Source of the DNA: Thermoplasmatota archaeon
GTDB lineage: Archaea > Thermoplasmatota > E2 > UBA202 > JdFR-43
Assembly: GCA_029259055.1 (NCBI GenBank)
Contig: JAPDJP010000014.1
Location: forward strand, 5,935-69,934
DNA length: 64,000 nt
Reading direction: 5' to 3'
Shown here piece after piece: positions 24,540-50,376 of this stretch (position 1 is its first letter; every line of letters begins with the position of its first letter). The notes under the pieces were generated by a model. The model had not been told where the DNA came from and searched no databases. It worked only from the letters and a program-made list of their open reading frames with translations. Position numbers and translations under genes: made by a program.

Positions 24540-25052
24540 TTAAATTGATTTTGCTGTATTTAGCAATTCTATTAGTATTTTTTCTTTGATTTTATTTTTT
24601 TCATTAAAGAATTCTTCCAGCAATTTTTTATCGTATTTTTTGCTATATTCATATGCCTGTAAAATCATTTCAAATTTATCTATTTGATGAAGTAATTCTG
24701 CTTCTCTACTTTTGCCTTCCATAAACTCTTTCCATAGATTATAATATTCTCTGTTTTTTAATTCATCCAATAACAATTTTTTCATAGCCATTTCTTCCAT
24801 TTTCATTTTATCCCTTTTCTCCATATCATGAGGTGTAATATCTCCTGTAATTACTTCCGCCAAATCATGCAGTAAAGCCATTTTCATTAATTTCTCCGTA
24901 TTCAGGTTCATATAATCCCCCAAAAGCATAGCAATTAAAGCAACTCTAAATGTATGGCAAGCAACACTTTCTGCATCTTCTATCCCAATCCTAATCCATC
25001 CCGCTCTTTTTATTTCTTTTAGTTTCCCAGCTTTCATAATAAATGACAACAT
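24540..25052 (-). CDS. HD-domain phosphohydrolase (YfbR-like 5'-nucleotidase family)
   Basis: CHTFRVA...LLHDLAEVITGDITP HD motif. Start trimmed to MLSF at 25052 because the first 31 codons of the track ORF are the tRNA below. Confidence 0.65.
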   Translation of the reverse strand: MLSFIMKAGKLKEIKRAGWIRIGIEDAESVACHTFRVALIAMLLGDYMNLNTEKLMKMALLHDLAEVITGDITPHDMEKRDKMKMEEMAMKKLLLDELKNREYYNLWKEFMEGKSREAELLHQIDKFEMILQAYEYSKKYDKKLLEEFFNEKNKIKEKILIELLNTAKSI

Positions 25053-25053
25053 A

Positions 25054-25135
25054 TGCGGGGGGTGGGATTCGAACCCACGAAGGCCTTCGCCACAGGGTCC
25101 TAAGCCCTGCGCCGTTACCGCTTGGCTACCCCCGC
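25054..25135 (-). tRNA. tRNA-Leu (anticodon TAG), long variable arm
   Basis: Minus-strand read GCGGGGGTAGCCAAGCGGTAACGGCGCAGGGCTTAGGACCCTGTGGCGAAGGCCTTCGTGGGTTCGAATCCCACCCCCCGCA. 7-bp acceptor stem, GTTCGAATC T-loop, anticodon loop CTTAGGA, long extra arm. CCA not encoded. Confidence 0.8.
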
Positions 25136-26172
25136 TAACATGCAAGCAATTTTTTTGTTATTGGTAAAAAGTTAAAGTCCTTTATAATTTTAGCCTTATT
25201 TAAACTATATGTCCTTATGAGAGGATTTAACAAAATCCAATCATTTTCCTTTAATTTTTGCATTATGTTTGTTTTGCAGAGCTTATAGCTTTCAAAACTG
25301 TCATGCATTGATATCGCAACAAATTCGAATCTTCTCGCCGCCAAAAAAACAATTTCATTACACAATAATTGCTTAAGCTCGTCTTTTTCAAAATTTGGAG
25401 GATTGTGAGGATTTAAGGGCACATGATAAAATGCCAAAATTTTCAAACCTATTTTACTGAAATCTGGTATTACTATTGTTTTCATATAACCATTCATGAA
25501 TTTTTTCTTCAACCTTCCAACTGTATGCCTTGTTACTCCTATCATTTCAGCAACTTCTTTTGAAGATTTTTCGGGGTGTTCAATTATTTTACAAAATATT
25601 TTCTTTTCTCTTTTCGAAAAACTTACTTTTTTAATTTCAAAAAAATTCCCATTTTCTTTTACTTCGTCATTTATTTCAAATAAAGTGGATAGCAAGGGAG
25701 AAAAATCAAAAAATCTATATATTTTACTTAATTCAAAAGGAAAAATCACCTCCCTCGGATACTGTCTATCTAATAAGCCTAAAGAACCAAATGTATAAGT
25801 TCTCACATCATTTATTTTTCCAATACTTGTATAATTTTTTGCAAAACTTATTGAAAATCCCTTATCCTCTTCCCCCATAGAAAAGAAAATTTCCTCTGAG
25901 GCTTCTATTTTTTCTTCTGTTACCTCCACTCTTCTTTCTAAAGGAATGACTGGGTTAAAATTTGTATATATTATTGCCATTATTTCTGCTCCAAAATTTT
26001 GGAGCATTGGAACAAGATAAACCTTGTAATAATTTTCTTCCCTTAATCTTTTTCTAATAGCGGAAACTGTTGATTGCTTTATCCCAAATTTTTCCGCTAT
26101 TTGCCGATCACTTGCATTTGGGAATTTTGTTATACCATACAATACTTTTTTTTCATAATTTGTTAAATTCAC
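25135..26172 (-). CDS. transcriptional regulator with two tandem wHTH-plus-effector modules
   Basis: Module 1 has DRQIAEKFGIKQSTVSAIRKRLREE and module 2 has SKEVAEMIGVTRHTVGRLKKKF, each followed by about 100 aa. Internal duplication visible by eye. Confidence 0.45.
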   Translation of the reverse strand: MNLTNYEKKVLYGITKFPNASDRQIAEKFGIKQSTVSAIRKRLREENYYKVYLVPMLQNFGAEIMAIIYTNFNPVIPLERRVEVTEEKIEASEEIFFSMGEEDKGFSISFAKNYTSIGKINDVRTYTFGSLGLLDRQYPREVIFPFELSKIYRFFDFSPLLSTLFEINDEVKENGNFFEIKKVSFSKREKKIFCKIIEHPEKSSKEVAEMIGVTRHTVGRLKKKFMNGYMKTIVIPDFSKIGLKILAFYHVPLNPHNPPNFEKDELKQLLCNEIVFLAARRFEFVAISMHDSFESYKLCKTNIMQKLKENDWILLNPLIRTYSLNKAKIIKDFNFLPITKKLLAC

Positions 26173-26367: not shown

Positions 26368-26619
26368 ATGAAATATTGGGTAAAAGAAGAATTAAAGCCC
26401 CCTCATGGCAAAGTGTATATAATAAAGGATAGATGTAAGGGTTGCGGTTTTTGCATAGAGTTTTGCCCACAAGGCGTTTTACAGGAATCGGAAGAATTTA
26501 ATGCCAAGGGATATCACCCACCAAAACTTGTTGAAAACGAAAAAAAATGCATAGGATGCGGTTTCTGTTCCTTGGTTTGTCCTGAATTTGCAATTTATAT
26601 TGAAAAGGAGGGGGAATAA
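26368..26619 (+). CDS. 2-oxoacid:ferredoxin oxidoreductase delta subunit (2x[4Fe-4S])
   Basis: CKGCGFCIEFCP and CIGCGFCSLVCP cluster motifs. 83 aa. Confidence 0.75.
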   Translation: MKYWVKEELKPPHGKVYIIKDRCKGCGFCIEFCPQGVLQESEEFNAKGYHPPKLVENEKKCIGCGFCSLVCPEFAIYIEKEGE

Positions 26620-26621
26620 AT

Positions 26622-27752
26622 ATGCAAGTAAAATTTTATAGTGGAAATATTGCATGTGCTGAAGGCGCAATAGCTGCTGGTTGCAGATTTTTTGCTGGTT
26701 ATCCTATAACACCTTCATCAGAGATTGCAGAACATATGGCTTTAAGATTGCCGCAAGTAGGAGGGATATTTATTCAAATGGAAGATGAACTTGCTTCGAT
26801 GGCTGCTATACTTGGTGCATCTTGGGGAGGTGCTAAAGCAATGACAGCTACATCTGGCCCGGGTTTTTCGTTAATGCAAGAAAATATTGGATTGGGAGCG
26901 ATGACGGAAACACCTTGTGTTGTTGTAAATGTTCAGAGAGCGGGCCCCTCTACCGGAATGCCCACTTTAGTTGGACAAGCGGATGTTATGCAAGCAAGAT
27001 GGGGTAGTCATGGTGATTATGAAATCATTGCCTTGAGCCCTTCTTCACCGCAAGAATGTTTTGATTTAACAATAAGAGCGTTTAATTTGGCGGAAGAATA
27101 TAGAGTTCCAGTTATTGTTTTAATGGATGAAAGTGTAAGCCATATGTTTGAAAAAGTAATTATCCCTCCTAAAGAAAAAATAAGAATTGTTAATAGAAAA
27201 AAACCAAGAGTTCCCCCTGATGAATTTCTGCCATATAAGGCAGATGATTTTATTCCTCCTATGGCTTGTGCTGGAGAAGGTTATTCGGTACATGTAACTG
27301 GTTTAACCCACGATGAAAAAGGTTATCCTCAAGCTACCTCACCAGAAGTTCAAGAAAGACTTGTGAGGAGATTATGTGATAAAATTAGGAAAAACGAAAG
27401 GAAAATGAGAGATATTGAAGAATATGAGATGGAAGATGCTGAAATTGCAATAGTTTCTTTTGGAACAACCGCAAGAAGCGCAAAAGCAGCGGTAAAGTTT
27501 GCTAGAAAAAAAGGATATAAGGTTGGATTGATAAGACTTAAAACAATATGGCCATTTCCTGATGAATATTTTGAAAGCTTGGATGGCATTAAAAAATTTC
27601 TGGTTGTAGAAGTAAATTATGGACAAATTAAATTGGAAGTGGAAAGAAATGTTGGCAAAAATAGAGTTGAATTATTACCAAAAATGGGAGGGGAAATTCA
27701 TACGCCTGAAGAAATATACAAAAAAATTAGGGAGGTGTTGCAATGGAAATAG
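26622..27752 (+). CDS. 2-oxoacid:ferredoxin oxidoreductase alpha subunit
   Basis: Typical OFOR alpha N-terminus (GNIACAEGAIAAGCRFFAGYPITPSSEI). Confidence 0.8.
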   Translation: MQVKFYSGNIACAEGAIAAGCRFFAGYPITPSSEIAEHMALRLPQVGGIFIQMEDELASMAAILGASWGGAKAMTATSGPGFSLMQENIGLGAMTETPCVVVNVQRAGPSTGMPTLVGQADVMQARWGSHGDYEIIALSPSSPQECFDLTIRAFNLAEEYRVPVIVLMDESVSHMFEKVIIPPKEKIRIVNRKKPRVPPDEFLPYKADDFIPPMACAGEGYSVHVTGLTHDEKGYPQATSPEVQERLVRRLCDKIRKNERKMRDIEEYEMEDAEIAIVSFGTTARSAKAAVKFARKKGYKVGLIRLKTIWPFPDEYFESLDGIKKFLVVEVNYGQIKLEVERNVGKNRVELLPKMGGEIHTPEEIYKKIREVLQWK

Positions 27753-28573
27753 TTGCAAAAAATCATCCTTTAGATAAATATCTCCGTACGGATCGTATCC
27801 CCCACATATGGTGCCCTGGTTGTGGTCTTGGAACTGTATTAAATTGTTTTTTGCATGCCTTAGAAGAAACAGATATTGATTTGAAAAATTTAGCCATTGT
27901 TTCTGGAATAGGATGCACTGGAAGAGTTGCTGGTTATATAAATGTTGATTCCTATCATACCACTCATGGAAGGGCGATACCATTTGCTACTGGATTAAAA
28001 CTTGCAAATCCAAAATTGAAAGTAGTTGTATTTAGTGGAGATGGAGATTTATTTGCTATAGGGGGAAATCATTTTATACATGCTGCCAGGCGAAATATAG
28101 ATATGACGGTAATATGCGTAAATAATTATAACTATGGAATGACAGGCGGACAGTTAGGACCAACTACACCTTTGGATGCAAGAACAACAACAAGTCCATA
28201 TGGAAATATTGAGCATCCTTTCAATTTATGCCATGTTGCTGCTGCATCAGGTGCTGTTTATGTTGCGAGATGGACAGCACTCCATGTTCGCCGCCTAAAA
28301 GAATCGATGAAGGAAGCATTAAACAAAAAAGGTTTTTCTTTCATAGAAGTAATCGCTTCCTGTCCTACTACTTATGGGCGCCGTAACAAAATGCCGACTG
28401 GATTAGAAACAATGAAATATTATAAAGAGCATTCCGTAATTAAGCATGGTATCGACCCATCAAAAGCAGATATTGAAATTGGTAAAGATATCGTAGTGGG
28501 AAAATTTGTTGACATTGAAAAACCTACATTTGATGAAGCTGTTCATGAATTGATAAAAAAGGCGAGAAAATGA
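27743..28573 (+). CDS. 2-oxoacid:ferredoxin oxidoreductase beta subunit (TPP-binding)
   Basis: WCPGCG..., GIGC and GDGD TPP/Mg motifs. Confidence 0.8.
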   Translation: MEIVAKNHPLDKYLRTDRIPHIWCPGCGLGTVLNCFLHALEETDIDLKNLAIVSGIGCTGRVAGYINVDSYHTTHGRAIPFATGLKLANPKLKVVVFSGDGDLFAIGGNHFIHAARRNIDMTVICVNNYNYGMTGGQLGPTTPLDARTTTSPYGNIEHPFNLCHVAAASGAVYVARWTALHVRRLKESMKEALNKKGFSFIEVIASCPTTYGRRNKMPTGLETMKYYKEHSVIKHGIDPSKADIEIGKDIVVGKFVDIEKPTFDEAVHELIKKARK

Positions 28574-29106
28574 GAATCGAAATAAAATTTGGGGGATTTG
28601 GAGGGCAAGGAATAATCACTATGGGACATATAGCGGGCAAGGCTTGTATCTATGATGAAAGGAATGTTGTCTTTACACCTTCTTATGGGCCTGAAGCAAG
28701 AGGAGGAGCGGCAAGTTCAAATATTGTTATAAGCGATGAAGAAATAGATTATCCATATGTTACATACCCAGATATTCTTGTCGTAATGAGTCAAGAAGCA
28801 TATGAAAAATATGCCCCTTTGCTTAAGGAGGAGGGTTTACTCATTATTGATGAAGATTTAGTCAGACTTAAGAATGGAGAAGGAAGAGTAGCAAAAATAC
28901 CGGCAACAAGAATTGCAGAAAATCTAGGAAAAAGAATAGTTACAAATATAGTGATGCTTGGATTTTTTACTGGAGTAACAAAATTGATTTCTTATGATGC
29001 AATAAAAAAAGCTGTATTGGAAACGGTCCCAGCAAAATTTAAAGAGCTAAATGAAAAAGCATTAGATGAAGGTTATAAGAGAGGGATAGAATGGCAAGAA
29101 GAATAG
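28570..29106 (+). CDS. 2-oxoacid:ferredoxin oxidoreductase gamma subunit
   Basis: GFGGQGI...PSYGPEARGG motif of OFOR gamma. Confidence 0.75.
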   Translation: MRIEIKFGGFGGQGIITMGHIAGKACIYDERNVVFTPSYGPEARGGAASSNIVISDEEIDYPYVTYPDILVVMSQEAYEKYAPLLKEEGLLIIDEDLVRLKNGEGRVAKIPATRIAENLGKRIVTNIVMLGFFTGVTKLISYDAIKKAVLETVPAKFKELNEKALDEGYKRGIEWQEE

Positions 29107-31025
29107 GTGTATTTGTTTGTCATTGTGGCGTAAATATTGCAGGCGTTGTGGATGTTGAAAGAGTAGCTGAAGAAATAAAAAAGCATCCAAATGTTGTTTT
29201 TGCAACTACCTATCAATACATGTGCTCTGACCCTGGCCAAAACCTAATAAGACAAAAAATAGAGGAGGAGAATTTAGATGCTGTTGTTATAGCAGCTTGC
29301 TCACCTGCTATGCATGAAGAAACATTTAGAAATGTTTGCAAAGATTATTTCAATCCCTATAGGTGTGAAATGGCTAATATCAGGGAACAATGTTCATGGG
29401 TTCATGATGGGAAAGAAGCAACAGAAAAGGCAATAAAAATTGTTAAAGCAACTGTTGAAAAATTAAAAGAAAATGAGGATTTATTGCCCATTCTTGTTCC
29501 GGTAGAAAAGAGATGCTTAGTCATAGGAGGGGGTATAGCTGGAATACAAGCAGCTTTAGATATAGCTGATGCTGGTTATGAAGTTATTTTGGTGGAGAAA
29601 GAGCCAAGTATAGGAGGAAGAATGGCGCAATTGAGCGAGACATTTCCTACATTGGACTGTAGCCAATGTATTCTAACGCCTAAAATGGTTGCTTTATCAA
29701 GACATCCAAAGGTAAAGCTGTATGCATATTCCGAAATTTTGGATATATCTGGATATGTTGGCAACTTTACTGTAAAAATTTTGAAGAAGCCCCGTTATGT
29801 TGATGAAGATAAATGCACTGTATGTGGAGATTGTGAAAAAGTTTGCCCAGTTATTGTTCCAAATGAATTTGAAATGGGAAGAAAGCCAAGAAAAGCAATT
29901 TATATTCCCTTCCCCCAAGCAGTTCCTTCCACATATACTCTGGATAGAGAAGCTTGCTTAGGATTGGCTCCATTAACATGCGCTCAATGTAAAGATGCGT
30001 GCGAGGCTGGTGCCATCGATTATGATATGCAGCCGAAAATTGTTGAAGAGAAAGTCGGAGCCATTATAGTTGCTACTGGCTATAACTTATATGATAAGAA
30101 TAAGCTTGTAGAATATGGATACGGGGAGGATGATGATATAATAACAAGTTTAGAATTTGAAAGAATGCTTTCCGCCAGTGGTCCCACACAGGGCAAAATT
30201 ATAAAGCCTTCTACAGGTGAAGTGCCAAAAAAAATCGTTTTTATTCAGTGTGCTGGTTCTAGAGATAGACAGCATATGCCTTATTGTAGCAGTATATGCT
30301 GTATGTATACAGCAAAGCATGCTTTGCTATATAAACATCATGTGCCGGATGGGGAAGCATACGTTTTTTATATTGATATAAGAGCTACTGGTAAAGGTTA
30401 TGAAGAATTTATTGCAAGAGTAATGGAGGAGGAAAGAATAAATTATATTAGGGGCAAAGTAGCCAAGATATATAGAGAGGGAAATAAACTCATTGTTTGT
30501 GGAGTTGACACTCTTACAGGTAGGAGAATCGAAATAAAAGCTGATTTGGTTGTATTAGCAATGGCTATAGTTGGAAAAGAAGAGACAAAGGAAATAGCAA
30601 AGTTATTGAAAGTGGCTATAGACGAAGGAGGATTTTTAAAAGAATCTCATCCAAAATTGAAGCCAGTTGAAGCTTTATCAAGAGGCATTTATTTTGCTGG
30701 TTGCTGTCAGTCTCCAAAAGATATTCCTTCTGCTGTTGCTCAAGCTTCTGCAGCAGCATCAAAAGTTCTTGCTTTATTTGCAAAAGATAGACTCGAAAAA
30801 GATCCTTTAGTAGCTGTTATTGATGAAGAACACTGTTCTGGTTGTGGAGTCTGTATAAGTGTTTGCCCCTATGGAGCTATGACATGGCAAAATGGGAAAG
30901 CAAAATGTATAGAAGCACTTTGTGAGGGATGTGGAACCTGTGCGGCAGCTTGTCCGAGCAATAATATTGAAATGAGAAATTTCAAAGACGAACAGATTGA
31001 AAAAATGGTGGAGGTGGTTATATGA
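29091..31025 (+). CDS. hdrA: heterodisulfide reductase subunit A
   Basis: MARRIGVFVCHCGVNIAG N-term. FAD GGGIAGIQAA. Several CxxCxxCxxxCP clusters. 644 aa. Confidence 0.85.
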   Translation: MARRIGVFVCHCGVNIAGVVDVERVAEEIKKHPNVVFATTYQYMCSDPGQNLIRQKIEEENLDAVVIAACSPAMHEETFRNVCKDYFNPYRCEMANIREQCSWVHDGKEATEKAIKIVKATVEKLKENEDLLPILVPVEKRCLVIGGGIAGIQAALDIADAGYEVILVEKEPSIGGRMAQLSETFPTLDCSQCILTPKMVALSRHPKVKLYAYSEILDISGYVGNFTVKILKKPRYVDEDKCTVCGDCEKVCPVIVPNEFEMGRKPRKAIYIPFPQAVPSTYTLDREACLGLAPLTCAQCKDACEAGAIDYDMQPKIVEEKVGAIIVATGYNLYDKNKLVEYGYGEDDDIITSLEFERMLSASGPTQGKIIKPSTGEVPKKIVFIQCAGSRDRQHMPYCSSICCMYTAKHALLYKHHVPDGEAYVFYIDIRATGKGYEEFIARVMEEERINYIRGKVAKIYREGNKLIVCGVDTLTGRRIEIKADLVVLAMAIVGKEETKEIAKLLKVAIDEGGFLKESHPKLKPVEALSRGIYFAGCCQSPKDIPSAVAQASAAASKVLALFAKDRLEKDPLVAVIDEEHCSGCGVCISVCPYGAMTWQNGKAKCIEALCEGCGTCAAACPSNNIEMRNFKDEQIEKMVEVVI

Positions 31026-31441
31026 AAGAAGATTTTGAACCAAAAATTGTTGCCTTTCTTTGTAATTGGTGTGCTTATGCAGGGGCTGATATGGCTGGAA
31101 CATCCCGCCTTAAATACCCAGCAAATGTTGTGCCAATAAAAGTAATGTGCTCTGGAAGGGTTGATCCTGAATTCATATTAAATGCTTTTGAAAAAGGCGC
31201 AGACGGCGTATTCATAGGAGGCTGTCATCCAGGGGATTGCCATTATGTTAACGGAAATTTAAGAACAAGAAGAAGAGTAAAAATGATGAAAAAACTGTTG
31301 GAACAAATGGGAGTAAATCCGAAAAGATTGCGTTTAGAATGGATTTCAGCAACAGAAGGGGCTAAATTTGCAAGAGTAATAAAGGAATTTGTTGAAGAAA
31401 TTAAAGAATTAGGGCCCTCTCCATGGAGGGAAAGAAGATGA
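31022..31441 (+). CDS. mvhD: methyl-viologen-reducing hydrogenase delta subunit
   Basis: KIVAFLCNWCAYAGAD...VMCSGRV...GCHPGDCHY conserved MvhD/FlpD pattern. Confidence 0.8.
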   Translation: MKEDFEPKIVAFLCNWCAYAGADMAGTSRLKYPANVVPIKVMCSGRVDPEFILNAFEKGADGVFIGGCHPGDCHYVNGNLRTRRRVKMMKKLLEQMGVNPKRLRLEWISATEGAKFARVIKEFVEEIKELGPSPWRERR

Positions 31442-32361
31442 AAAACGTAAAGAAGAAAATAGCAATGTATTGGGGAGCTGGTTGTGGGGGATGCGATGTC
31501 TCATTGCTTGGCATACATGAGAAATTGTTGGATTTGCTCGATGAAATTGAAATCGTTTTTTGGCCATGTGCAATGGATATAAAATACGAGGACTTGGAAA
31601 AAATGGAAGATAAGAGCATAGATATTGCTTTTTATAATGGAGCAATAAGAACTGAGGAAAATGAAGAAATTGCCAAATTATTGAGGAAGAAAGCAAAATT
31701 GATGGTGGCTTATGGTTCATGTGCTATAGAGGGATGCGTTATAGGATTAGCGAATTTGTATAATAAAAAAGAAATTTTTGAAGCTGTTTATTTAAAAAAC
31801 GAGACAACAAAAGAAAAAATTTTGCCTTCTCGTGATTTACCAGAATTTTTACCATATTTAAAGACATTGGACCAAGTAGTAAAAGTAGATGCATTTATTC
31901 CGGGTTGTCCTCCCCCTAAGCCAGTATTAGAAGAAGCTTTAGATGCCTTACTTCAAGGAAAAACAAAATTTGGAAAAGAGGTAGCTTTATGTGAAGAATG
32001 CCCGCGTAAAGATACAAAACCAGAAAAAATAGAGATAAGCAAATTTTATAGATGGCATGAGAAAGAAGATAATGGAGAATGTTTTTTGGCACAGGGTATC
32101 ATCTGTATGGGTCCCGCTACACGAGCTGGTTGTAAAGGGGAATGCATTTCTGCAAATATTCCATGTACTGGTTGCATGGGTGCATTGCCTAGAGTTAGAG
32201 ACCAAGGGGCGGCGATGCTCTCAGCGATTGCATCATTATTGGATGTGGAAGATGAAAAGGAGGATGAAGTTATAGATAGTATTAAGGATATAATCGGAAC
32301 ATTTTATAAATATTCTACAGCAAAATTGTTGCCAAGAGGAGGGATGAAAGATGAAAGTTAG
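31438..32361 (+). CDS. mvhG: [NiFe] hydrogenase small subunit (F420-non-reducing)
   Basis: IAMYWGAGCGGCDVSLL proximal-cluster motif. Start set to ATG of ATGA overlap with mvhD stop. Confidence 0.8.
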   Translation: MKNVKKKIAMYWGAGCGGCDVSLLGIHEKLLDLLDEIEIVFWPCAMDIKYEDLEKMEDKSIDIAFYNGAIRTEENEEIAKLLRKKAKLMVAYGSCAIEGCVIGLANLYNKKEIFEAVYLKNETTKEKILPSRDLPEFLPYLKTLDQVVKVDAFIPGCPPPKPVLEEALDALLQGKTKFGKEVALCEECPRKDTKPEKIEISKFYRWHEKEDNGECFLAQGIICMGPATRAGCKGECISANIPCTGCMGALPRVRDQGAAMLSAIASLLDVEDEKEDEVIDSIKDIIGTFYKYSTAKLLPRGGMKDES

Positions 32362-33799
32362 TTGTAATAGCAAAATATGCATTAACCCCATAACAAGATT
32401 GGAAGGGCATGGAAGAATAGATATAATTTTAGATGAAAATGGAAGAGTTGAAAAAGCATATATGATTATCCCTGAATTAAGGGGATTCGAAAAATTTTGC
32501 CAAGGAAGGAAAGCCGAAGATATGCCAATAATAACTTCCCGCATTTGTGGAGTGTGCCCGGAAGCGCATCATATGGCCGCAGCAAAAGCATTAGATATGG
32601 CCTTTAATGTTGAGCCACCTAAAACCGCCAAATTATTGAGGGAATTACTTTACAATGCTTATATATACTATGACCATTGCTTGCATTTATATTATTTAGG
32701 AGGTATTGATGTTTTACTTGGAGATGTTCCCAAAGAAGAAAGAAATGTGATAGGGTTAATAAAAAAATTCGGAGTAGAAATAGGAAAGGAAGTTATAAAA
32801 CATCGCCGTTATGCAATGGAAATTGTTAAAATTCTGGGCGGACGGGAGATACACCCTGTGGCGGCAATACCTGGAGGAGTAAGTAAGGGAATAAATGAGG
32901 AAGAAAGGGAAGAAATCAGGAAAAAAGCTGAATCGTGTGTTAAATTTGCTTTAAAAAGCTTAGAAATTTTTAAAGATGTTTTTAATAGCAAAAGATGGAA
33001 TGAATTGCTTGGCTTAGATAAAATACAAACATATTATATGGGGTTAGTTGATGAAAAAAATCGTGTAAATTATTATGATGGGGACATAAGAATTGTTGAT
33101 CCAGATGGTAAAGAATTTGCAAAAGTAAAGACAAAAGATATTTTAAATTATATAGAAGAGCATGTTGAAGAATGGACTTATGTAAAATTTCCCTACTTAA
33201 AGCAAATTGGATGGAAAGGATTCATTGATGGGAAGGATAGTGGCATTTATAGAGTAGGGTCGTTAGCAAGGCTTAATGTTGCGGATGGAATGAATACTAA
33301 GCATGCTATGGAAGAGTTTAAGGAATTTAGGAAAGATGGTATAGTGCATGAAACCTTTGGATATTATTATGCCCGCCTTATAGAAATGTTAAATGCAGCA
33401 GAAAGAATGCTTGATTTAGTAGAGCAAGATGAAATAGTAGGTAATGATTTGCGAAATATGCCAAACGAGCCCAATGAAGGCGTAGGAGTTGTGGAAGCTG
33501 CTAGAGGTGTGCTAATTCATCATTATAAGCTAAATAATGATGGATTAGTTGAAAAAGTAAATCTTATTGTTGCTACAACAAATAATAATGCTGCCATTAA
33601 TATGAGTGTTGCAAATACTGCAAAAAAGGTTATTGACAAAGGAGAAATAAATGATATTCTATTGAATAAGGTTGAAGCTGCCTTTAGATGTTACGACCCT
33701 TGTTTAGCCTGCGCTTCACATGCTTTGGGGCAGATGCCTCTGATAGTAAACCTATATAAAGGAAAAAAATTTTATAGGAGGCTCGAAAAAAATGTATAG
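32351..33799 (+). CDS. mvhA: [NiFe] hydrogenase large subunit (F420-non-reducing)
   Basis: N-terminal RICGVCPEAHH and C-terminal DPCLACASHA Ni-binding CxxC pairs. Confidence 0.85.
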   Translation: MKVSCNSKICINPITRLEGHGRIDIILDENGRVEKAYMIIPELRGFEKFCQGRKAEDMPIITSRICGVCPEAHHMAAAKALDMAFNVEPPKTAKLLRELLYNAYIYYDHCLHLYYLGGIDVLLGDVPKEERNVIGLIKKFGVEIGKEVIKHRRYAMEIVKILGGREIHPVAAIPGGVSKGINEEEREEIRKKAESCVKFALKSLEIFKDVFNSKRWNELLGLDKIQTYYMGLVDEKNRVNYYDGDIRIVDPDGKEFAKVKTKDILNYIEEHVEEWTYVKFPYLKQIGWKGFIDGKDSGIYRVGSLARLNVADGMNTKHAMEEFKEFRKDGIVHETFGYYYARLIEMLNAAERMLDLVEQDEIVGNDLRNMPNEPNEGVGVVEAARGVLIHHYKLNNDGLVEKVNLIVATTNNNAAINMSVANTAKKVIDKGEINDILLNKVEAAFRCYDPCLACASHALGQMPLIVNLYKGKKFYRRLEKNV

Positions 33800-34238
33800 T
33801 GTTGTTGTTGGCATTGGAAATCCTTTGCTTGGGGATGATGCGGTTGGTTTGGAAGTTGTTAAAAGGTTAAAGGAAAAGAATGAAAAAAATGTAGACACAA
33901 AGCTTTGCATGGCTGGAGGGCTTGAGTTGGCAGAGACGATTGCCGATTACGATTTAGCTATCATAGTCGATGCTGTTAAAGGCATAGATGGAGTCAAAGA
34001 AATTAGTATAGATGACTATAAAGAAAGCGTTGCTAATCATGATATAAGTTTTCCATCTGCCTATAGAATTCTATCAAAATATATTAGGATGCCAAAAGTG
34101 AGAATCGTAGGAATAGGAATAAATAATATAGAAATGAAAGAAGAAATTTCTGATGAAACTAAAGAAAAAATACCTGTTGCAATAAAATTTATTAAAAAAA
34201 TATTGGAGGAAGAAAATGAACTTGTTGGAGAAAGTTGA
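33792..34238 (+). CDS. hydrogenase maturation endopeptidase (HycI/FrhD family)
   Basis: VVVGIGNPLLGDDAVG metal-binding motif. 148 aa. Confidence 0.7.
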   Translation: MYSVVVGIGNPLLGDDAVGLEVVKRLKEKNEKNVDTKLCMAGGLELAETIADYDLAIIVDAVKGIDGVKEISIDDYKESVANHDISFPSAYRILSKYIRMPKVRIVGIGINNIEMKEEISDETKEKIPVAIKFIKKILEEENELVGES

Positions 34239-34572
34239 GGAATTAAGCGGGCAAAATTTGTATGCCTGTTATCAATGTGGGCGTTGTTCAGCAGGTTGCC
34301 CCATGGTTGAACAAATGGATTTATTGCCTAATCAGGTTATATTGTTGGTTATAAGAGGAGATCAAAGTGTTGTAGAAGCTAAAACGCCATGGATATGCGC
34401 AGAATGTTATCAATGCTTTACAAGATGTCCAAAAGAAGTAGATATTGCAAAAATAATGGAAGCATTGCGCTTGATAAAATTGAGGAAAAATATCGATTAT
34501 ATTAAATTGGGGGAATTAAAGAATTTACCACAAATTGCCTTAGTAGCTGGTGCAAGAAAATATACGGGGTGA
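34216..34572 (+). CDS. hdrC: heterodisulfide reductase subunit C-like (2x[4Fe-4S])
   Basis: CYQCGRCSAGCP and CAECYQCFTRCP motifs. Confidence 0.75.
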   Translation: MNLLEKVEELSGQNLYACYQCGRCSAGCPMVEQMDLLPNQVILLVIRGDQSVVEAKTPWICAECYQCFTRCPKEVDIAKIMEALRLIKLRKNIDYIKLGELKNLPQIALVAGARKYTG

Positions 34573-34576
34573 AAAA

Positions 34577-35359
34577 ATGGAGGAAATGGCTTATTATCCG
34601 GGATGTACATTAAAAACAAATGCAAAAGAATTTGAAGAAAGTTTGCTAAGAGTATTTAAGAAATTGGGAATCAGGCTTAAAGAATTGAATAAATGGTACT
34701 GTTGCGGTACAGTATATAGCTTAGCTACTGATAACTTAATGTATAGGCTAGCAGCAATAAGAAATTTAATAAAAGTTATGGAAGAAGGATATGATAAAGT
34801 TGTTGTTCCCTGTTCAATATGTTACAATACCCTAAAACAAGCAAATTTAATGGCAAGAAATGACAAAGAGGCGATGGAAAAAATAAATTCCTTTATGGAC
34901 GAAGAGCCAGATTATGACGGAAGCGTTGAAGTTTTACATCCTTTAGAATTATTAAGAGAAAAAATAGATAAATTAAAAGGAAAATTAAATGGAAAATATG
35001 CATGTTATTATGGTTGCTTGTTGTTGCGCCCAAAAGAAGTTGCTATAGATGAATATGAGATGCCTACAATAATGGAAAAAATTGTTGAAGCTTTAGGAGG
35101 GAGCGTCGTTAATTTTCCTTTAAAAAATGAATGTTGCGGAAGTTATAATGTGGTTAGCAATAAAGAAGCTGTTATTGATAGGGTTTATAGGATTATAATG
35201 AATGCAAGGAAAAACGAAGCAGAAGCAATATTAACTTCATGCCCTCTTTGCCATTTCAACTTAAAGGAAATGCAAAATGAAATAAAAAAAATTCATGCAG
35301 ATTTTGTTGATATGCCAATATATTATTTTAGCCAAATAATAGAGGAAGCGTTAGAATAA
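34577..35359 (+). CDS. hdrB: heterodisulfide reductase subunit B-like (two CCG domains)
   Basis: YYPGCT ... WYCCG ... second Cys-rich CCG region (YYGCLL, CCGS). Start moved to MEEMAYY. Confidence 0.8.
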   Translation: MEEMAYYPGCTLKTNAKEFEESLLRVFKKLGIRLKELNKWYCCGTVYSLATDNLMYRLAAIRNLIKVMEEGYDKVVVPCSICYNTLKQANLMARNDKEAMEKINSFMDEEPDYDGSVEVLHPLELLREKIDKLKGKLNGKYACYYGCLLLRPKEVAIDEYEMPTIMEKIVEALGGSVVNFPLKNECCGSYNVVSNKEAVIDRVYRIIMNARKNEAEAILTSCPLCHFNLKEMQNEIKKIHADFVDMPIYYFSQIIEEALE

Positions 35360-35380
35360 AAATGAGAAAGGAGGGATAAA

Positions 35381-36121
35381 ATGGCAAGAAAAAGGAAGGA
35401 AGGAAGAAAAAAGGAAGAAATGAAAATGGTCAGAATTTATATTATGGGGAAGGAATATAAGGTGCCGGCTGGCTTAACAATAATGAAGGCAATGGAATAT
35501 GCTGGTTATCGTTACATAAGGGGAGCTGGTTGCAGAGCTGGGTTTTGTGGGGCTTGTGCCACTGTCTACAGAAAGGAAGGAGATTACAAATTATATGCAG
35601 ATTTAGCCTGCCAAACAACAGTTGAAGATGGAATGTGGCTTGTACAGCTTCCATTTACTCCAGCAAACAAAGCGACCTATGATTTGGAGGAAATAAAGTT
35701 AGATGATAAAACGCTTGTTAATTTCTATCCAGAAATAGCTAGATGCGTTTCTTGTAATACATGTACAAAAGCGTGCCCCCAGGAACTGGAAGTAATGGAT
35801 TATATACAAGCTTGTTTAAGAGGAGATATCAAAAAAGCTGCTGAGCTTTCTTTTGATTGCATACAATGTGGTTTATGTGCTTTACGATGTCCTGCAGAAA
35901 TAGCTCATTATCATGTTAGCCAGCTTGCAAGGCGATTATATGGAAAATATATTGCTCCAAAAGCAAAGCATTTAGAAAAGAGAGTTGAAGAAATAAAAGA
36001 AGGAAAATTCGATAAAGAAATGAAAGAAATCATGGAAAAGAGTATAGAAGAGCTTAAAGAAATGTATAATTCTCGTTATATAGAGCCGGAAGAAGAGGAA
36101 ATTGTTGTTGAAGCTGACTAG
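35381..36121 (+). CDS. succinate dehydrogenase/fumarate reductase iron-sulfur subunit-like (2Fe-2S + 2x4Fe-4S), no CCG domain
   Basis: GCRAGFCGACA plant-type 2Fe-2S. CVSCNTCTKACP and CIQCGLCALRCP. True start probably MKMVRIY within the Lys-rich leader. Confidence 0.7.
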   Translation: MARKRKEGRKKEEMKMVRIYIMGKEYKVPAGLTIMKAMEYAGYRYIRGAGCRAGFCGACATVYRKEGDYKLYADLACQTTVEDGMWLVQLPFTPANKATYDLEEIKLDDKTLVNFYPEIARCVSCNTCTKACPQELEVMDYIQACLRGDIKKAAELSFDCIQCGLCALRCPAEIAHYHVSQLARRLYGKYIAPKAKHLEKRVEEIKEGKFDKEMKEIMEKSIEELKEMYNSRYIEPEEEEIVVEAD

Positions 36122-36129
36122 GTGAGAAA

Positions 36130-37779
36130 ATGTATCCAAAAGAATTTGAAAAATCTATAAGAAAGGTTGAAGAAACAAGGCAAGAAAGGCTTAAAAAGCC
36201 TCCGGAGAGGTTAGGCGAAAAAGAAAAGGAAGAATTATTAAAGAAATGGCATCCAGATTATAAGCCGGAGGCAAAAAGAAAATTAAGAGTAGGAGTAAGT
36301 AAAGGAAGCATTGTACCAAATGAGGTTGCAGACATAATTGAGGCATATCCTTTAATTAATCCAGATGAGATCGATTTAAGCCAAATTGACTATGAAACCG
36401 ATATTTTAATTATTGGAGGTGGAGGTGCAGGAACTGCGGCAGCTTTATTTGCATACTATAATGGCATATCTCCAGAAAATATAATAATTGCAACAAAACT
36501 TCGCCATGGGGACAGCAATACAATAATGGCTCAGGGAGGAATACAAGCTGCAGACAAAGAAAATGATTCACCAGTTATCCATTATTTGGATGTTATAGGA
36601 GGAGGACATTTCGCAAACAAGCCGGAGTTAGTGGCTAGGCTTGTTTTAGATGCTCCTTTAATAATAAAATGGCATGAAGAACTTGGTGTAATGTATGATA
36701 AAAAGGAAGATGGAGAAATGATAACTATACATGGAGGAGGTACTAGCCGAAAAAGAATGCATTCAGCCAAAGATTATACCGGAATGGAAATAATGCGCGT
36801 GCTAAGAGACGAGGCAAGAAATATTGGTATAGAAGTATTGGAATTTTCTCCAGCCATTGATTTACTTATTGATGATGAGGGAAAAGTAGGCGGAGCATTG
36901 CTATATAATTTGGAAACAGACCAATATTATGTTGTAAAAGCGAAGGCAGTTATTCTGGCAACAGGAGGATTTGGAAGATTACATATACAAGGATTTCCAA
37001 CAACCAACCACTATGGAGCAACAGCCGACGGCCTAGTAATGGCGTATAGAGTTGGAGCAAAGCTTAGAGATATGGATTCTGTACAATATCATCCTACTGG
37101 TGTAGCGTATCCTGAACAAATAGTTGGGTTACTTGTTACGGAAAAGGTGAGAGGATTAGGTGCTCAACCTGTGAATGTGGAGGGAGAACAATTCGTACAT
37201 CCTCTGGAGCCAAGAGATGTTGAAGCAGCTGCAATCATAAGAGAATGTTATGGAAGAAATAAAGGTGTTATTACACCTACTGGAATGCGTGGAATATGGC
37301 TCGATTCCCCAATGATTGAAATAATACATGGAAAGGGAACTATTGAAAGAAGGCTTGGAGCAATGTTTAGAATGTTTAAGAGATTTGATATTGATATGCG
37401 TTACGAACCAATTCTTGTGTTTCCGACGCTTCATTATCAAAATGGGGGTATTGAAATAAATGAGAATGCTCAAGTTCTCGGCATAAATGGAATAATAAAG
37501 GGACTATTTGCAGCTGGAGAAGTAGAAGGAGGAGTTCACGGAAAAAATAGGCTTATGGGTAATTCATTGTTAGATACACAAGTATTTGGAAGAATAGCTG
37601 GAATTAATGCTGCAAAATATTCAAGAAAGGCAAAAGTAGGAAAATTGAGTTTAGAGCATGTCAAAAAATATGTAGAAGAGCTAAAAAAGGCAGGAATAAA
37701 GGAAGAAAGAAAAGCCCCAATCTTGCTTCCAGATTATAGAGAAAAGAAAGTATTATCGAGAGCAATAGACATATTATAG
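36130..37779 (+). CDS. fumarate reductase/succinate dehydrogenase flavoprotein-like (TfrA-like) with about 90-aa N-terminal extension
   Basis: ILIIGGGGAGTAAAL FAD motif. SVQYHPTG (QFHPTG-type) motif. C-terminal helical domain. Confidence 0.75.
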   Translation: MYPKEFEKSIRKVEETRQERLKKPPERLGEKEKEELLKKWHPDYKPEAKRKLRVGVSKGSIVPNEVADIIEAYPLINPDEIDLSQIDYETDILIIGGGGAGTAAALFAYYNGISPENIIIATKLRHGDSNTIMAQGGIQAADKENDSPVIHYLDVIGGGHFANKPELVARLVLDAPLIIKWHEELGVMYDKKEDGEMITIHGGGTSRKRMHSAKDYTGMEIMRVLRDEARNIGIEVLEFSPAIDLLIDDEGKVGGALLYNLETDQYYVVKAKAVILATGGFGRLHIQGFPTTNHYGATADGLVMAYRVGAKLRDMDSVQYHPTGVAYPEQIVGLLVTEKVRGLGAQPVNVEGEQFVHPLEPRDVEAAAIIRECYGRNKGVITPTGMRGIWLDSPMIEIIHGKGTIERRLGAMFRMFKRFDIDMRYEPILVFPTLHYQNGGIEINENAQVLGINGIIKGLFAAGEVEGGVHGKNRLMGNSLLDTQVFGRIAGINAAKYSRKAKVGKLSLEHVKKYVEELKKAGIKEERKAPILLPDYREKKVLSRAIDIL

Positions 37780-39543
37780 CAATATTCTACCTATCTCTTC
37801 CAACGTATCTAAATCATTCATTTTGACCATCTTATTTGATATAGTATATAATACATTGTCAATATATAATGCTCTTTTTACAAAGCTTTCGTAATCCCAG
37901 CAAATTTCTTCTAAATGGGTTATTCTCCCTTTAAATTTAAATCCGCTTAAATTCAATTTGTATACATAAGCTCCCTGAAAAACAAACTTTCTGTATATTC
38001 TTGAATAATTTGCATCTATTTCTTTGCACATTTCGTGCACTCTGACAGGTATAACTAACAATTCTTTTTTTCTATCGAACAAAAATGCTTTATGGTCATA
38101 TAATGCCAAGCTATCCGTTCCTATATCTCCTATAACAACCTTATCTATTTCTTTGGGTTCATCAGGATTGGTAACATCAAATAAAGCAATTTTAAGTCCT
38201 TCTGTAACTCCAATATTTTCGTCTGCCTCTTTCCCTATTCCAATTATGTGATTCTCATCATATGGATGCAAATAATCGGAATAGCCAGGTATTTTTAATT
38301 TTCCTAAGATCTCAGGTTTATAAGGGTTGGATAAATTTATAACAAAAAATGGGTCCATCCTTTTAAAAGTTACAAGATATGCCCTATTTCCCATAAATCT
38401 TGCAGAATAAATTTCTTCTCCAACAGCAATATTTTCTAATTTTCCTACTATACTTAGATTTTCGTCCAATATGTAAATATTATTACTTGAGTTTGTCCAT
38501 GAATAACCAATTGTTGTGGCTATCCTAAAAAATCCATTATATTCGTCCATGGAAAATTGATTTAGAATTCTTCCCAATACTTCTCCAAATGCTTCATATG
38601 AGATTTTGCCATTTTTTATTGATATTCTATGAATTATTGTTCTTTCTTTGTAATAATAACTATAACTGTATTTTCTACACGCTAAGAATATATTATACTT
38701 TGAAACATACATTGTTTGCACATTACCAATAACAAAACTTTTTTGGTCAATAATTTCTCCTCTTATACTTATCGCAATAACATTTGTAATGGAATCTATT
38801 GTATAAGGCATGTCCATGTAATAAATGCAATTAATAGGTGTTGATATGGTCTCATTATCAATTCTTATTTTTGGTAAATTTAATATTTCCTTTTCTTCAT
38901 AAGTAAAATAAATATCAAATGGTTCTTCAATAGTTACAATATAAACATAGTTATCCAGCATTCTTGCATCGAAATATCTTCCGTCTACTTCGATGTCTTT
39001 TATTAATTTAGGCTCTTCTCTATTTGAAATATTATATATCTTAATGAGTGTTGTTGGAAAACCTCTGGAGTAATTCCCAAATTCTAAATATCTATAGGAA
39101 TAGCAAAAAACAATGAGATAATCCTTATTAATAAAAATATCCATTGGTTCAACGTCTAATACTATTTTGGAAGAAATATTAGCATTTTCTGGAGGATAAG
39201 CCCTTATAATATAAATTTTCTGGTTCGTAACCATATAAATATATTCTCCATCTGTTTTGACAAAATCTGGTTCATCAACTCCTTCTACCTGAACATTTGT
39301 TTTAGAAAAATCAATATAATCTGATGATTTGGCATGAAAATCTGCTCCTTCTACAGCATCTACAACAATTTCTCCTTTATATACTGGAGTAAAAATTTCC
39401 CCCATATTATTTCTGAAAAATTCCAAAACTTGATGATATGTAGTGAAGGGTTTTAATTTATATGTATACTCTCCTCGGCTTGGGATGATGACTACCAATG
39501 TTATTAATATTAAAATTACCAATGCTATTTTTTTCCAGTCCAT
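37774..39543 (-). CDS. secreted beta-propeller-domain protein (COG4880-like)
   Basis: N-terminal TM/signal. C-terminal repetitive blade-like segments as in the archaeal secreted beta-propeller family. Recall-based. Confidence 0.45.
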   Translation of the reverse strand: MDWKKIALVILILITLVVIIPSRGEYTYKLKPFTTYHQVLEFFRNNMGEIFTPVYKGEIVVDAVEGADFHAKSSDYIDFSKTNVQVEGVDEPDFVKTDGEYIYMVTNQKIYIIRAYPPENANISSKIVLDVEPMDIFINKDYLIVFCYSYRYLEFGNYSRGFPTTLIKIYNISNREEPKLIKDIEVDGRYFDARMLDNYVYIVTIEEPFDIYFTYEEKEILNLPKIRIDNETISTPINCIYYMDMPYTIDSITNVIAISIRGEIIDQKSFVIGNVQTMYVSKYNIFLACRKYSYSYYYKERTIIHRISIKNGKISYEAFGEVLGRILNQFSMDEYNGFFRIATTIGYSWTNSSNNIYILDENLSIVGKLENIAVGEEIYSARFMGNRAYLVTFKRMDPFFVINLSNPYKPEILGKLKIPGYSDYLHPYDENHIIGIGKEADENIGVTEGLKIALFDVTNPDEPKEIDKVVIGDIGTDSLALYDHKAFLFDRKKELLVIPVRVHEMCKEIDANYSRIYRKFVFQGAYVYKLNLSGFKFKGRITHLEEICWDYESFVKRALYIDNVLYTISNKMVKMNDLDTLEEIGRILL

Positions 39544-49308: not shown

Positions 49309-50376
49309 ATGAAATTGCTCGAATTCCAAGGAAAAAAACTTTTTAAGGAATATGGCATACCTGTACCCCAAGGCATTGTTATTGAGAAAAAAGAGGATTT
49401 AAAAGATATAGATATTCCCTTTCCATGGGTAATGAAAGCCCAAGTTTTGGTGGGAGGAAGAGGAAAAGCAGGAGGTATTAAATTTGCAAATAATATGGAA
49501 GAAGCAATAAAGAATTTTGAAGAGCTCATAACCATGGAAATAAAGGGGGAGAAAGTAAGAAAAGTGCTTATTGAGGAGAAATTAAGGATCGAAAAGGAAT
49601 ATTATTTAAGCTTTTTTATAGATAGGAGTAGCAGAAAATATTTAATGATGTTCTCTTTTGAAGGAGGTGTCGATATAGAAGCAATGGCTGAAAAAGTAAT
49701 GAAAATTTATGTTAATCCTTTAATTGGGTTGCAACCATACCATTTAAGAAAACTGCCAAAAGAAGTGCGAGAGATTGCAAAAAAGCTGTTTCAGTTATTT
49801 ATTGAAAAGGATTGTGAGCTGGCAGAAATAAACCCTTTAGTTATTTCAAATGGATTGGCTATTGCTGCGGATTCAAAAATAATCATAGACAATAATTCCA
49901 TTTATAGGCATGAAGACTTACCAAAAGAAGATATAGAACTTACCCCTCTAGAAAGGGAGGCAAAAGAAAAAAGAATTGCTTTTGTTCAACTTGAAGGAAA
50001 TATTGGAGTTATAGCAAATGGAGCTGGTCTCACAATGGCAACTTTAGATGCATTAAATGAGTTTGATGGTAAGGGAGGGGTATTTTTAGATTTAGGAGGA
50101 ACAGATGACCCAGAAAAAGTAAAACAGGCTTTTGAATTAATGGCAAAAGCAAAACCAAAAGTGATTCTCCTAAATTTATTTGGAGGTATAACAAAATGTG
50201 ATACAGTTGCAAAAGGCATTATAGAATTTTTGCAAGAGAATAAAATCAATTGTCCCGTTATAGCTCGTATTAAGGGAATGAATGAAGAAAAAGCAAGGCA
50301 AATGCTTAAAGAATATGTTATTCCTATAGAATCTTTTAAAGAAGCTGCAAAAAAGGCAGCTGAGCTGGGTGGTTAA
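49309..50376 (+). CDS. sucC: succinyl-CoA synthetase beta subunit (ATP-grasp)
   Basis: [23 protein letters not shown]-term and ligase-CoA domain. Confidence 0.75.

Follow-up and report, generated by a model that had tools for sequence, protein, structure and literature searches.

A hydrogenase, heterodisulfide reductase and fumarate reductase gene block in a Thermoplasmata archaeon: a candidate H2-driven route to succinate and 2-oxoglutarate

The gene block and its predicted proteins

The DNA considered here is a 64-kb stretch (the window) of contig JAPDJP010000014.1 from a Thermoplasmata archaeon, and its subject is a run of 13 consecutive open reading frames (ORFs) on the plus strand, at positions 26368-37779 (Table 1). 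The run begins with the genes of a four-subunit 2-oxoacid:ferredoxin oxidoreductase (OFOR), continues with those for HdrA of heterodisulfide reductase (Hdr), for MvhD, MvhG and MvhA of an Mvh-type [NiFe] hydrogenase and for a maturation protease, and ends with HdrC-like and HdrB-like proteins followed by an Fe-S protein and a flavoprotein that together resemble a fumarate reductase. A first-pass annotation, made from the letters of the DNA, had described this contiguous same-strand block, and every gene that it listed is present; its heading spoke of eleven genes, a count to be corrected to 13, the number of both the ORFs and the entries in its own list. The overlaps and small gaps that it had noticed between the genes measure 4-23 nt and 2-21 nt, respectively. 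Since the neighbouring gene upstream diverges from the block and the one downstream converges on it, its end overlapping the flavoprotein gene by 6 nt, the block looks like a single transcription unit. About 32 nt 5' of the first ATG there is a TTTATATA motif, in a spacer so AT-rich that the motif is weak evidence. The G+C content of the window is about 33%, and its other genes include those for aIF2-alpha, an archaeal-type S-adenosylmethionine synthetase, a proteasome chaperone and RtcB, which mark it as archaeal; metagenome-assembled genomes of Thermoplasmata encode identical proteins.

Table 1. Features of the block and of its surroundings in the window (aa, amino acids; TPP, thiamine pyrophosphate)
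Feature	Position	Strand	Remarks
OFOR delta, 2x[4Fe-4S] ferredoxin-like	26368-26619	+	Best NCBIfam matches OorD and OGOR delta; 8 Cys
OFOR alpha, 2-oxoglutarate/2-oxoacid type	26622-27752	+	PRK08659, 590 bits, above cutoff (the family carries a generic 2-oxoacid enzyme name)
OFOR beta, TPP-binding	27743-28573	+	PRK09628, 272 bits (cutoff 364, not reached); PDB 8ys5_C, 244 bits
OFOR gamma	28570-29106	+	PRK08537, 206 bits (cutoff 235, not reached); TIGR02175 above cutoff
HdrA, predicted flavin-based electron-bifurcating subunit	29091-31025	+	733 bits to M. wolfeii 5odc_A, residues 5-647 of 654; 34 Cys
MvhD, [2Fe-2S] adaptor between donor module and HdrA	31022-31441	+	PF02662, 201 bits
MvhG-like [NiFe] hydrogenase small subunit	31423-32361	+	Best NCBIfam match VhuG, 210 bits, below equivalog cutoff
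MvhA-like [NiFe] hydrogenase large subunit	32351-33799	+	Best match VhuA, 370 bits, below equivalog cutoff
Hydrogenase maturation endopeptidase	33792-34238	+	TIGR00072, 87 bits, above cutoff; PF01750
Truncated HdrC-like 2x[4Fe-4S] protein (HdrC')	34216-34572	+	118 aa; two CX2CX2CX3CP motifs
HdrB-like CCG protein, two CCG domains	34550-35359	+	PF02754 twice; sites for two noncubane [4Fe-4S] clusters
FrdB/SdhB-like Fe-S protein	35381-36121	+	246 aa; [2Fe-2S] + 2x[4Fe-4S]; no CCG domain
FrdA-like flavoprotein	36130-37779	+	549 aa; PF00890 (FAD_binding_2) only
sucC + sucD (succinyl-CoA synthetase)	49309-51247	+	PRK00696, 370 bits; TIGR01019, 442 bits
HD-domain ORF	24540-25145		Predicted start overlapped by tRNA-Leu
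tRNA-Leu	25054-25135	-	Abuts the end of the 345-aa ORF
345-aa ORF	25135-26172	-	Two sigma-70 region-4-like helix-turn-helix stretches
Beta-propeller protein	37774-39543	-	589 aa; secreted-looking; PF09826
Cas4/PD-(D/E)XK-like nuclease	39639-40799	+	386 aa
GlcD-like FAD-linked oxidase	44353-45786	+	426 bits, below equivalog cutoff
Gamma-carbonic-anhydrase-like hexapeptide-repeat protein	51231-51719	+	Overlaps sucD by 17 nt

The flavoprotein lacks Succ_DH_flav_C (PF02910), the C-terminal domain of SdhA, and has a conserved, cysteine-free N-terminal extension of 88 aa. Alignment to 1nek_A and 7d6v_A showed that it keeps the equivalents of H242, T254, E255, R286, H354 and R399 of Escherichia coli SdhA, and in 18 homologues from a wide range of phyla its dicarboxylate-binding and catalytic residues did not vary. 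The histidine of covalent flavin adenine dinucleotide (FAD) attachment, His45, is replaced by Asn, both here and in every homologue examined, and the best fold matches of the AlphaFold2 model (pLDDT 75) were E. coli FrdA (1kf6_A) and Shewanella Fcc3. Work on E. coli Frd and Sdh and on Shewanella Fcc3 has established that non-covalently bound FAD supports fumarate reduction and is poor at succinate oxidation. The flavoprotein and its Fe-S partner would thus form a soluble enzyme with a non-covalent flavin and a complete fumarate site, soluble because none of the 13 block proteins shows a hydrophobic, membrane-like segment and no anchor gene lies in the block. A membrane-bound complex II, a grouping that the first-pass annotation had named, together with a fused tfrB elsewhere, as fatal to its own proposal, was rejected for the same reasons and for the missing covalent-FAD histidine and C-terminal domain. 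Aspartate and urocanate were also rejected as substrates of the flavoprotein, because all of the fumarate-binding residues are present and fumarase and SucCD are neighbours, as described below.

The Fe-S protein combines a CX4CX2CXnC motif, of the plant or SdhB [2Fe-2S] type, with two CX2CX2CX3CP motifs, all invariant in 20 homologues, and the domain search agreed with the earlier remark that this SdhB-like protein has no CCG domain. A search of PDB sequences with it returned generic ferredoxin matches only and no SdhB. Its AlphaFold2 model (pLDDT 77) found E. coli FrdB and SdhB as its best full-length fold matches, at a low TM-score of 0.28, and the C-terminal half of the model resembles HdrC. 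Because of that search result and that score, the label 'SdhB-like' rests on the cofactor motifs and the order of the domains. Among its homologues the protein goes by many names, including '4Fe-4S dicluster protein', 'heterodisulfide reductase subunit C', 'formate hydrogenlyase subunit 6', 'ferredoxin' and 'SDH/FRD-like Fe-S protein'.

The first-pass annotation had regarded the pair as part of a split thiol:fumarate reductase (Tfr), the enzyme that in methanogens consists of TfrA and a fused TfrB, and this stood in part. In the TfrB profile, the sequence of the Fe-S protein matches only positions 18-86, towards the N-terminus, and that of the HdrB-like CCG protein positions 255-473, so that the two halves of TfrB are covered by separate proteins. 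As Tfr proper the assignment did not hold, for both proteins score far below the TfrB cutoff of 385 bits and the flavoprotein, whose best NCBIfam match is TfrA (PRK06263, positions 6-428 of a 546-position profile), reaches 331 bits where the cutoff is 718.

The delta-alpha-beta-gamma set of OFOR genes is complete, and by profile and PDB scores its subunits are nearer to OGOR and KGOR than to POR, VOR or IOR. The alpha subunit scored 449 bits against the Pyrococcus furiosus 2-ketoacid:ferredoxin oxidoreductase (1yd7), 291 bits against a four-subunit 2-oxoglutarate synthase (8ys5) and 241 bits against the Magnetococcus OGOR (MmOGOR, 6n2n), as opposed to only 67 bits against POR, and the closest NCBIfam match of the beta subunit, PRK09628, is the family of 2-oxoglutarate ferredoxin oxidoreductase beta subunits. 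These scores bear out the earlier suggestion that the OFOR could be a 2-oxoglutarate enzyme (KOR), and the clustering with pyruvate enzymes that would have spoken against it was not seen; the OFOR resembles the 2-oxoglutarate type, not the pyruvate enzyme, in its predicted substrate. Contextual support for this predicted specificity comes from the sucCD genes, which lie 11.5 kb downstream of the block, at the 49.3-51.2 kb already given for them by the first-pass annotation, and from SucCD, fumarase and glutamate dehydrogenase genes in related loci. SucCD is predicted to be the step that links the fumarate reductase and the OFOR.

HdrA is full-length and canonical by its alignment to a structurally known homologue, and is predicted to be bifurcating. 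The translation of MvhA contains the metal-binding motifs RICGVC and DPCLACASH, with a cleavable C-terminal extension after the His. The donor position of the block is occupied by MvhG, MvhA and a maturation protease, and no NADH-oxidising FlxABC is found there. HdrC' aligns only to residues 30-107 of the 184-aa HdrC 5odc_C, lacking both N- and C-terminal parts, and scores 64 bits where the HdrC equivalog cutoff is 350; homologues in related loci have a median length of 133 aa, so the shortening is typical. The CCG protein, for which the public gene call starts at an ATG 27 nt further downstream and gives 260 aa, aligns end to end with HdrB (8rvv_B and 5odc_B) and keeps both CCG motifs intact. 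Its best NCBIfam match is SdhE of methylmenaquinol:fumarate reductase (155 bits, below cutoff), and against the HdrB family TIGR03288 it has 126 bits, short of the equivalog cutoff of 345.

Related loci in other archaea and bacteria

Relatives of the flavoprotein were sought with a degenerate-pattern scan of one genome per species, which matched 597 stretches (at least 597 species); the best 80 loci were kept and analysed by tblastn with 13 window proteins and by clustering of all of their ORFs. The gene for the Fe-S protein lies directly 5' of the flavoprotein gene almost everywhere, and in at least 35 of the 55 loci with enough upstream sequence the HdrC' and CCG genes stand directly ahead of this pair, giving a core of four genes. 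HdrA was found in 47 of the 80 loci, MvhA in 33 and OFOR alpha likewise in 33, and 19 loci hold OFOR, HdrA, MvhA, CCG, Fe-S and flavoprotein genes together. The archaeal hosts belong to Thermoplasmata, Thermococci/Methanofastidiosa, Theionarchaea, Culexarchaeia, Bathyarchaeota-like lineages, Desulfurococcales, and Heimdall-, Thor- and Borrarchaeota, and the bacterial ones to Thermotogae, Acetothermia/Bipolaricaulota, Anaerolineae, WOR-3, Fraserbacteria, Spirochaetota, Armatimonadota and Bacillota; in Candidatus Heimdallarchaeum aukensis the gene order is identical to that of the window. Because genes and gene order alike are repeated in so many phyla, the arrangement is not due to chance, and the loci show the block to be a conserved, horizontally mobile unit.

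What varies is the module that delivers the electrons. In eight loci, among them those of Heimdallarchaeota, a Chloroflexaceae metagenome-assembled genome (MAG) and an Eubacteriales MAG, an at least partial FlxA/B/C-like NAD(P)H module replaces MvhAG beside the same core, and where HdrA/MvhD are present without MvhAG (in L032, L037, L074, L076 and L078, for instance) the gap is filled by a FlxA-like protein that binds FAD/NAD and by two Fe-S proteins resembling FlxB/C. The core is thus constant, and the donor module is exchanged between one for H2 (MvhAG) and one for NAD(P)H (Flx).

The next commonest neighbours were class I fumarase (alpha in 16 loci, beta in 12), SucC (12) and SucD (8), malic enzyme (8) and glutamate dehydrogenase (5). 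One locus of Thermotogae (L016) unites malic enzyme, fumarase, the Hdr-Mvh-Frd block, SucCD and OFOR, and there and in L023, L024, L030 and L035 the OFOR genes are split around the Hdr/Frd genes. Taken together, the loci point to the predicted substrate pairs fumarate/succinate and 2-oxoglutarate/succinyl-CoA far better than the scores of single proteins do. They also fit the earlier proposal of a branch from fumarate by way of succinate and succinyl-CoA to 2-oxoglutarate that is linked to H2, with fumarase, SucCD, malic enzyme and glutamate dehydrogenase as its neighbours.

Several departures from the common plan were recorded. In many relatives of the Thermoplasmata type HdrA is doubled, in tandem or in rearranged form, and about 1000 aa long, as compared with 644 aa in the window (L021, L026, L029, L033, L034, L077 and others; 1403 aa in L052 and L071), and other relatives have HdrA-MvhD fusions of about 790-845 aa. 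A search of the 80 loci for fusions among the CCG, Fe-S and flavoprotein families, which would have spoken for physical contact, found none, the only fusions being HdrA-MvhD and the tandem HdrA. L004 (562-11647) and L030 (11-15981) contain HdrA twice and one HdrC/HdrB pair beside MvhDGA with another beside the Fe-S and flavoprotein genes; in L004 the copy beside Mvh, with 69% and 58% identity, is nearer to the HdrC/HdrB pair of the window than is the copy beside Frd, with 46% and 50%. In L043, L048, L057 and L065, from unclassified and WOR-3-like bacteria, the Fe-S and flavoprotein pair stands beside glutamate dehydrogenase with no Hdr gene within 10 kb. The locus of Acetothermia bacterium 64_32 (L024; LGFI01000006.1, 1531-13069) contains OFOR gamma, HdrA, MvhD, MvhA, CCG, Fe-S protein, flavoprotein and OFOR alpha.

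The proposed electron path, its precedents and its rivals

The reading towards which we lean, and which we regard as probable, is that the block encodes a cytoplasmic, H2-dependent, flavin-based electron-bifurcating fumarate reductase, the reduced ferredoxin of which feeds the 2-oxoglutarate synthase encoded with it. MvhAG would oxidise H2, and MvhD would relay the electrons to the FAD of HdrA, where each pair would be split. The high-potential electron would pass through HdrC', both noncubane clusters in the CCG protein and then the [4Fe-4S] and [2Fe-2S] clusters of the FrdB-like protein to the non-covalent FAD of the FrdA-like subunit, where fumarate would be reduced to succinate, and the low-potential electron would leave by the ferredoxin domains of HdrA for ferredoxin. 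SucCD would then convert succinate to succinyl-CoA, which the four-subunit OFOR would carboxylate with reduced ferredoxin to 2-oxoglutarate. Both halves of this wire have a model: Hdr would provide the path from HdrA through HdrC to HdrB, and Tfr the path from the CCG and SdhB-like modules to the flavoprotein, with the step from CCG protein to Fe-S protein made plausible by TfrB, in which both modules are joined in one protein. A rationale for the linkage to OFOR is suggested by the stoichiometry, since one ferredoxin (two electrons) would be made per fumarate and one used per 2-oxoglutarate. Calculated from textbook potentials, the transfer of electrons from H2 (-414 mV) to fumarate (+33 mV) and ferredoxin (about -450 to -500 mV) is strongly exergonic, and more so than bifurcation to CoM-S-S-CoB, the heterodisulfide of coenzymes M and B (CoM and CoB; about -140 mV). 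Fumarate, and not CoM-S-S-CoB, is the likely terminal acceptor of Mvh-Hdr in this block.

The idea of such a coupling has precedents. Tubeworm symbionts and Thioflavicoccus mobilis have clusters of flxABCD-hdrABC, korABCD and tfrAB for the reductive tricarboxylic acid (rTCA) cycle, from the gene order of which bifurcation to fumarate and OGOR was proposed (Rubin-Blum et al., mSphere 2019, PMC6315080), and the genes are co-expressed (Mitchell et al. 2024, PMC11636981; summarised in PMC13147460). As in the block, the genes of a four-subunit OGOR are mixed in one cluster with those of an Hdr module and of a two-gene fumarate reductase, the published tfrAB being likened to our Fe-S and flavoprotein pair by the make-up of the clusters and not by sequence; the donor there is NADH, through FlxABC, whereas in the block it would be H2, through MvhAG with its maturation protease, and the host is an archaeon without the ACL and rTCA context. 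The 'succinate operon' of Pseudoclostridium thermosuccinogenes, in which fumarase, Flx-Hdr and a two-gene fumarate reductase were proposed to be ferredoxin-coupled (Koendjbiharie and van Kranenburg 2019 preprint, as related in PMC7282089), likewise places a soluble two-subunit fumarate reductase straight after an Hdr bifurcation module. In that secondary account it is NADH-dependent, bacterial and fermentative, with succinate as the end product, and no OFOR or hydrogenase is reported.

With the methanogen MvhADG-HdrABC complexes (5odc, 8rvu, 7bkb and 9sfi) the block shares the set of HdrA, MvhD, MvhG, MvhA, HdrC-like and HdrB-like proteins, with full-length alignments of HdrA and HdrB and intact cluster motifs; it differs in an HdrC cut down to the ferredoxin core, an HdrB-like protein below the HdrB cutoffs, the lack of an MvhB polyferredoxin and the two extra subunits, FrdB-like and FrdA-like, that follow the HdrB-like one. 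Methanothermobacter TfrAB (Heim et al. 1998, as cited in PMC9324843 and PMC11237513) is, in those citations, a soluble fumarate reductase with the SdhB-like module and CCG domains found in the block. In TfrB they form one fused protein, whereas in the block the Fe-S and CCG genes are separate and an HdrC-like protein is added, and the CoM-SH and CoB-SH donors of TfrAB are unlikely for the block family in view of its taxonomic spread. Hydrogenobacter thermophilus has a five-subunit soluble NADH-dependent fumarate reductase (Miura et al. 2008, as related in PMC13147460). According to that summary the enzyme is irreversible and resembles the block in being soluble and multi-subunit, with a role in the reductive TCA cycle and extra electron-input subunits instead of an anchor, and differs in its NADH donor, its scattered genes and the fact that no bifurcation is reported. 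Beyond what that summary says, some of its extra subunits may be Hdr-like.

Our literature searches for fumarate reductase with MvhADG, group 3c hydrogenases, HdrA or Mesotoga turned up no account of a version linked to a hydrogenase, which, in a library of limited extent, is not proof that none exists, and the phrase 'bifurcating fumarate reductase' had no match. An NADH-dependent (Flx) version having been proposed already, the block is probably the H2-driven, bifurcating variant of a proposed class of Hdr-coupled soluble fumarate reductases that are tied to 2-oxoglutarate synthase.

Certain observations weigh against the bifurcating fumarate reductase, and it is from these that the rival explanations draw much of their force. 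The likeness of the Fe-S protein to FrdB is weak, and both structural models are of moderate confidence (pLDDT 75 for the flavoprotein and 77 for the Fe-S protein); moreover, the literature searches met with no biochemical or structural work on any version, the published Flx ones included. About nine of the 55 loci with enough upstream sequence have the Fe-S and flavoprotein pair alone, no Hdr gene lying within 10 kb, and some Bacillota carry the four-gene core only, from which it follows that coupling to HdrA or a hydrogenase is not obligatory for the flavoprotein family. The two HdrC/HdrB pairs of L004 and L030 demonstrate that Frd-associated and Mvh-associated pairs can coexist, so a second pair may lie elsewhere in the genome of our archaeon. 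Pairs without a nearby Hdr gene would be expected if an ordinary Mvh-Hdr with an unrelated acceptor, an AB-type fumarate reductase using ferredoxin or another donor, and KOR shared the operon merely as members of one pathway, and AB-only fumarate reductases whose donor has not been identified do occur in rTCA bacteria (PMC13147460). Co-regulation of this kind is nonetheless very improbable, as the order HdrC'-CCG-FeS-flavoprotein is tightly kept across domains, HdrC is consistently shortened in the family, the donor module (Mvh or Flx) varies beside a constant core and, in several loci, OFOR genes lie among those of the block. A further point against direct transfer to fumarate is that the intact CCG motifs are those of the disulfide-reducing site of true HdrB, so that a small thiol or disulfide substrate may be involved. 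This is the starting point for a model close to that of the first-pass annotation, in which Mvh-HdrABC reduces a (hetero)disulfide with H2 and a split thiol:fumarate reductase re-oxidises the thiols, a single HdrB-like protein serving both; the coverage of fused methanogen TfrB by the Fe-S and CCG proteins together accords with it, as does the four-gene core that stands by itself in loci of Bacillota such as Desulfofundulus and Ammonifex, an arrangement to be expected of a self-contained thiol:fumarate reductase. Yet many phyla of both bacteria and archaea carry the module, and to our knowledge CoM/CoB synthesis is not known from Thermotogae, Acetothermia, WOR-3, Chloroflexota, Bacillota or Asgard archaea, in all of which the module occurs. 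No candidate gene for a thiol carrier recurs among the conserved neighbours, and the equivalog cutoffs of TfrA and TfrB are missed. With one HdrB-like site, moreover, the disulfide would be reduced and re-formed in the same place, so that the loop offers no gain and reduces to direct electron transfer. We therefore consider a thiol pool improbable, and of the earlier claim that HdrB is shared by Mvh-Hdr and the fumarate reductase we would retain the sharing, which came close to the mark, and drop thiol oxidation as the link, a free thiol shuttle adding nothing where there is a single CCG protein.

A further objection concerns the direction of flux, since the presence of glutamate dehydrogenase and malic enzyme as neighbours is just as compatible with an oxidative flux that degrades glutamate. 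Run in reverse, the complex would be a confurcating succinate dehydrogenase in the fermentation of glutamate and other amino acids: OFOR would oxidise 2-oxoglutarate to succinyl-CoA and reduced ferredoxin, SucCD would make ATP, the high-potential electrons of succinate and the low-potential ones of ferredoxin would merge at HdrA and leave as H2 through MvhAG, thereby pulling an otherwise impossible succinate oxidation, and the carbon would reach pyruvate through fumarase and malic enzyme. Those two enzymes, together with glutamate dehydrogenase and SucCD, do recur as neighbours, the 1:1 ratio of ferredoxin to succinate holds in this direction too, and many of the hosts are predicted peptide fermenters or syntrophs, for which MAG papers draw the same oxidative path (PMC9723716, PMC11291895); succinate oxidation to H2 also becomes more favourable above about 65 °C (PMC9723716). 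Set against this, H2 oxidation is the cellular role of every group 3c hydrogenase that has been characterised biochemically (PMC11216029). By calculation, ferredoxin at about -450 to -500 mV would give a mean donor potential of only about -210 to -235 mV, so that H2 would have to be kept at or below about 1 Pa, and the Asn invariably found for the covalent-FAD histidine points to a kind of enzyme generally known to oxidise succinate poorly. The reverse route thus appears unlikely to us, though less so than either a thiol pool or mere co-regulation.

The H2-dependent bifurcating fumarate reductase also has a bolder form, in which MvhAG, MvhD, HdrA, HdrC', the HdrB-like and FrdB-like proteins, the FrdA-like subunit and KOR would be one hard-wired supercomplex that passes the low-potential electrons of HdrA straight into KOR delta for CO2 fixation onto succinyl-CoA, and the high-potential acceptor that Mvh-Hdr uses physiologically would be fumarate in a large share of the archaea that are not methanogens, Heimdall- and Thorarchaeota included, and in several bacterial phyla. 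The analogy is with the methanogen Hdr-Fwd/Fmd assemblies, in which the final reduction drives the initial fixation of CO2 (PMC13518236, PMC13580544). In this full form the proposal is speculative, and we think it doubtful.

For Asgard archaea, Culexarchaeia and further uncultured anaerobes, genome studies have repeatedly given the acceptor of MvhADG-HdrABC as 'an unidentified heterodisulfide' (PMC11291895, PMC9723716). The operon suggests that in many non-methanogens it is fumarate and not an unknown disulfide, at least 19 of the 80 loci pointing to fumarate as a concrete acceptor, and the question is thereby made directly testable by enzymology. Were the bifurcating fumarate reductase confirmed, energy from the reduction of fumarate with H2 would be conserved without a membrane, and it would be explained how quinone-free organisms power the reductive dicarboxylate branch. 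The family is widespread and under-annotated, with inconsistent names for its Fe-S subunit, and routine annotation evidently misses it: the Acetothermia genome that carries the block-type cluster L024 was described as being without a fumarate reductase gene (PMC4725000).

Other genes in the window

Upstream of the block, the 345-aa ORF with its helix-turn-helix stretches is the gene that diverges from the operon and may be a regulator. The convergent gene downstream encodes the beta-propeller protein and is followed next by the gene for the Cas4-like nuclease. The GlcD-like oxidase, which does not adjoin the block, is related to glycolate, D-lactate and D-2-hydroxyglutarate dehydrogenases. Directly after sucD, the hexapeptide-repeat protein might supply CO2 or bicarbonate for carboxylation, or might be an unrelated protein of the acyltransferase fold.

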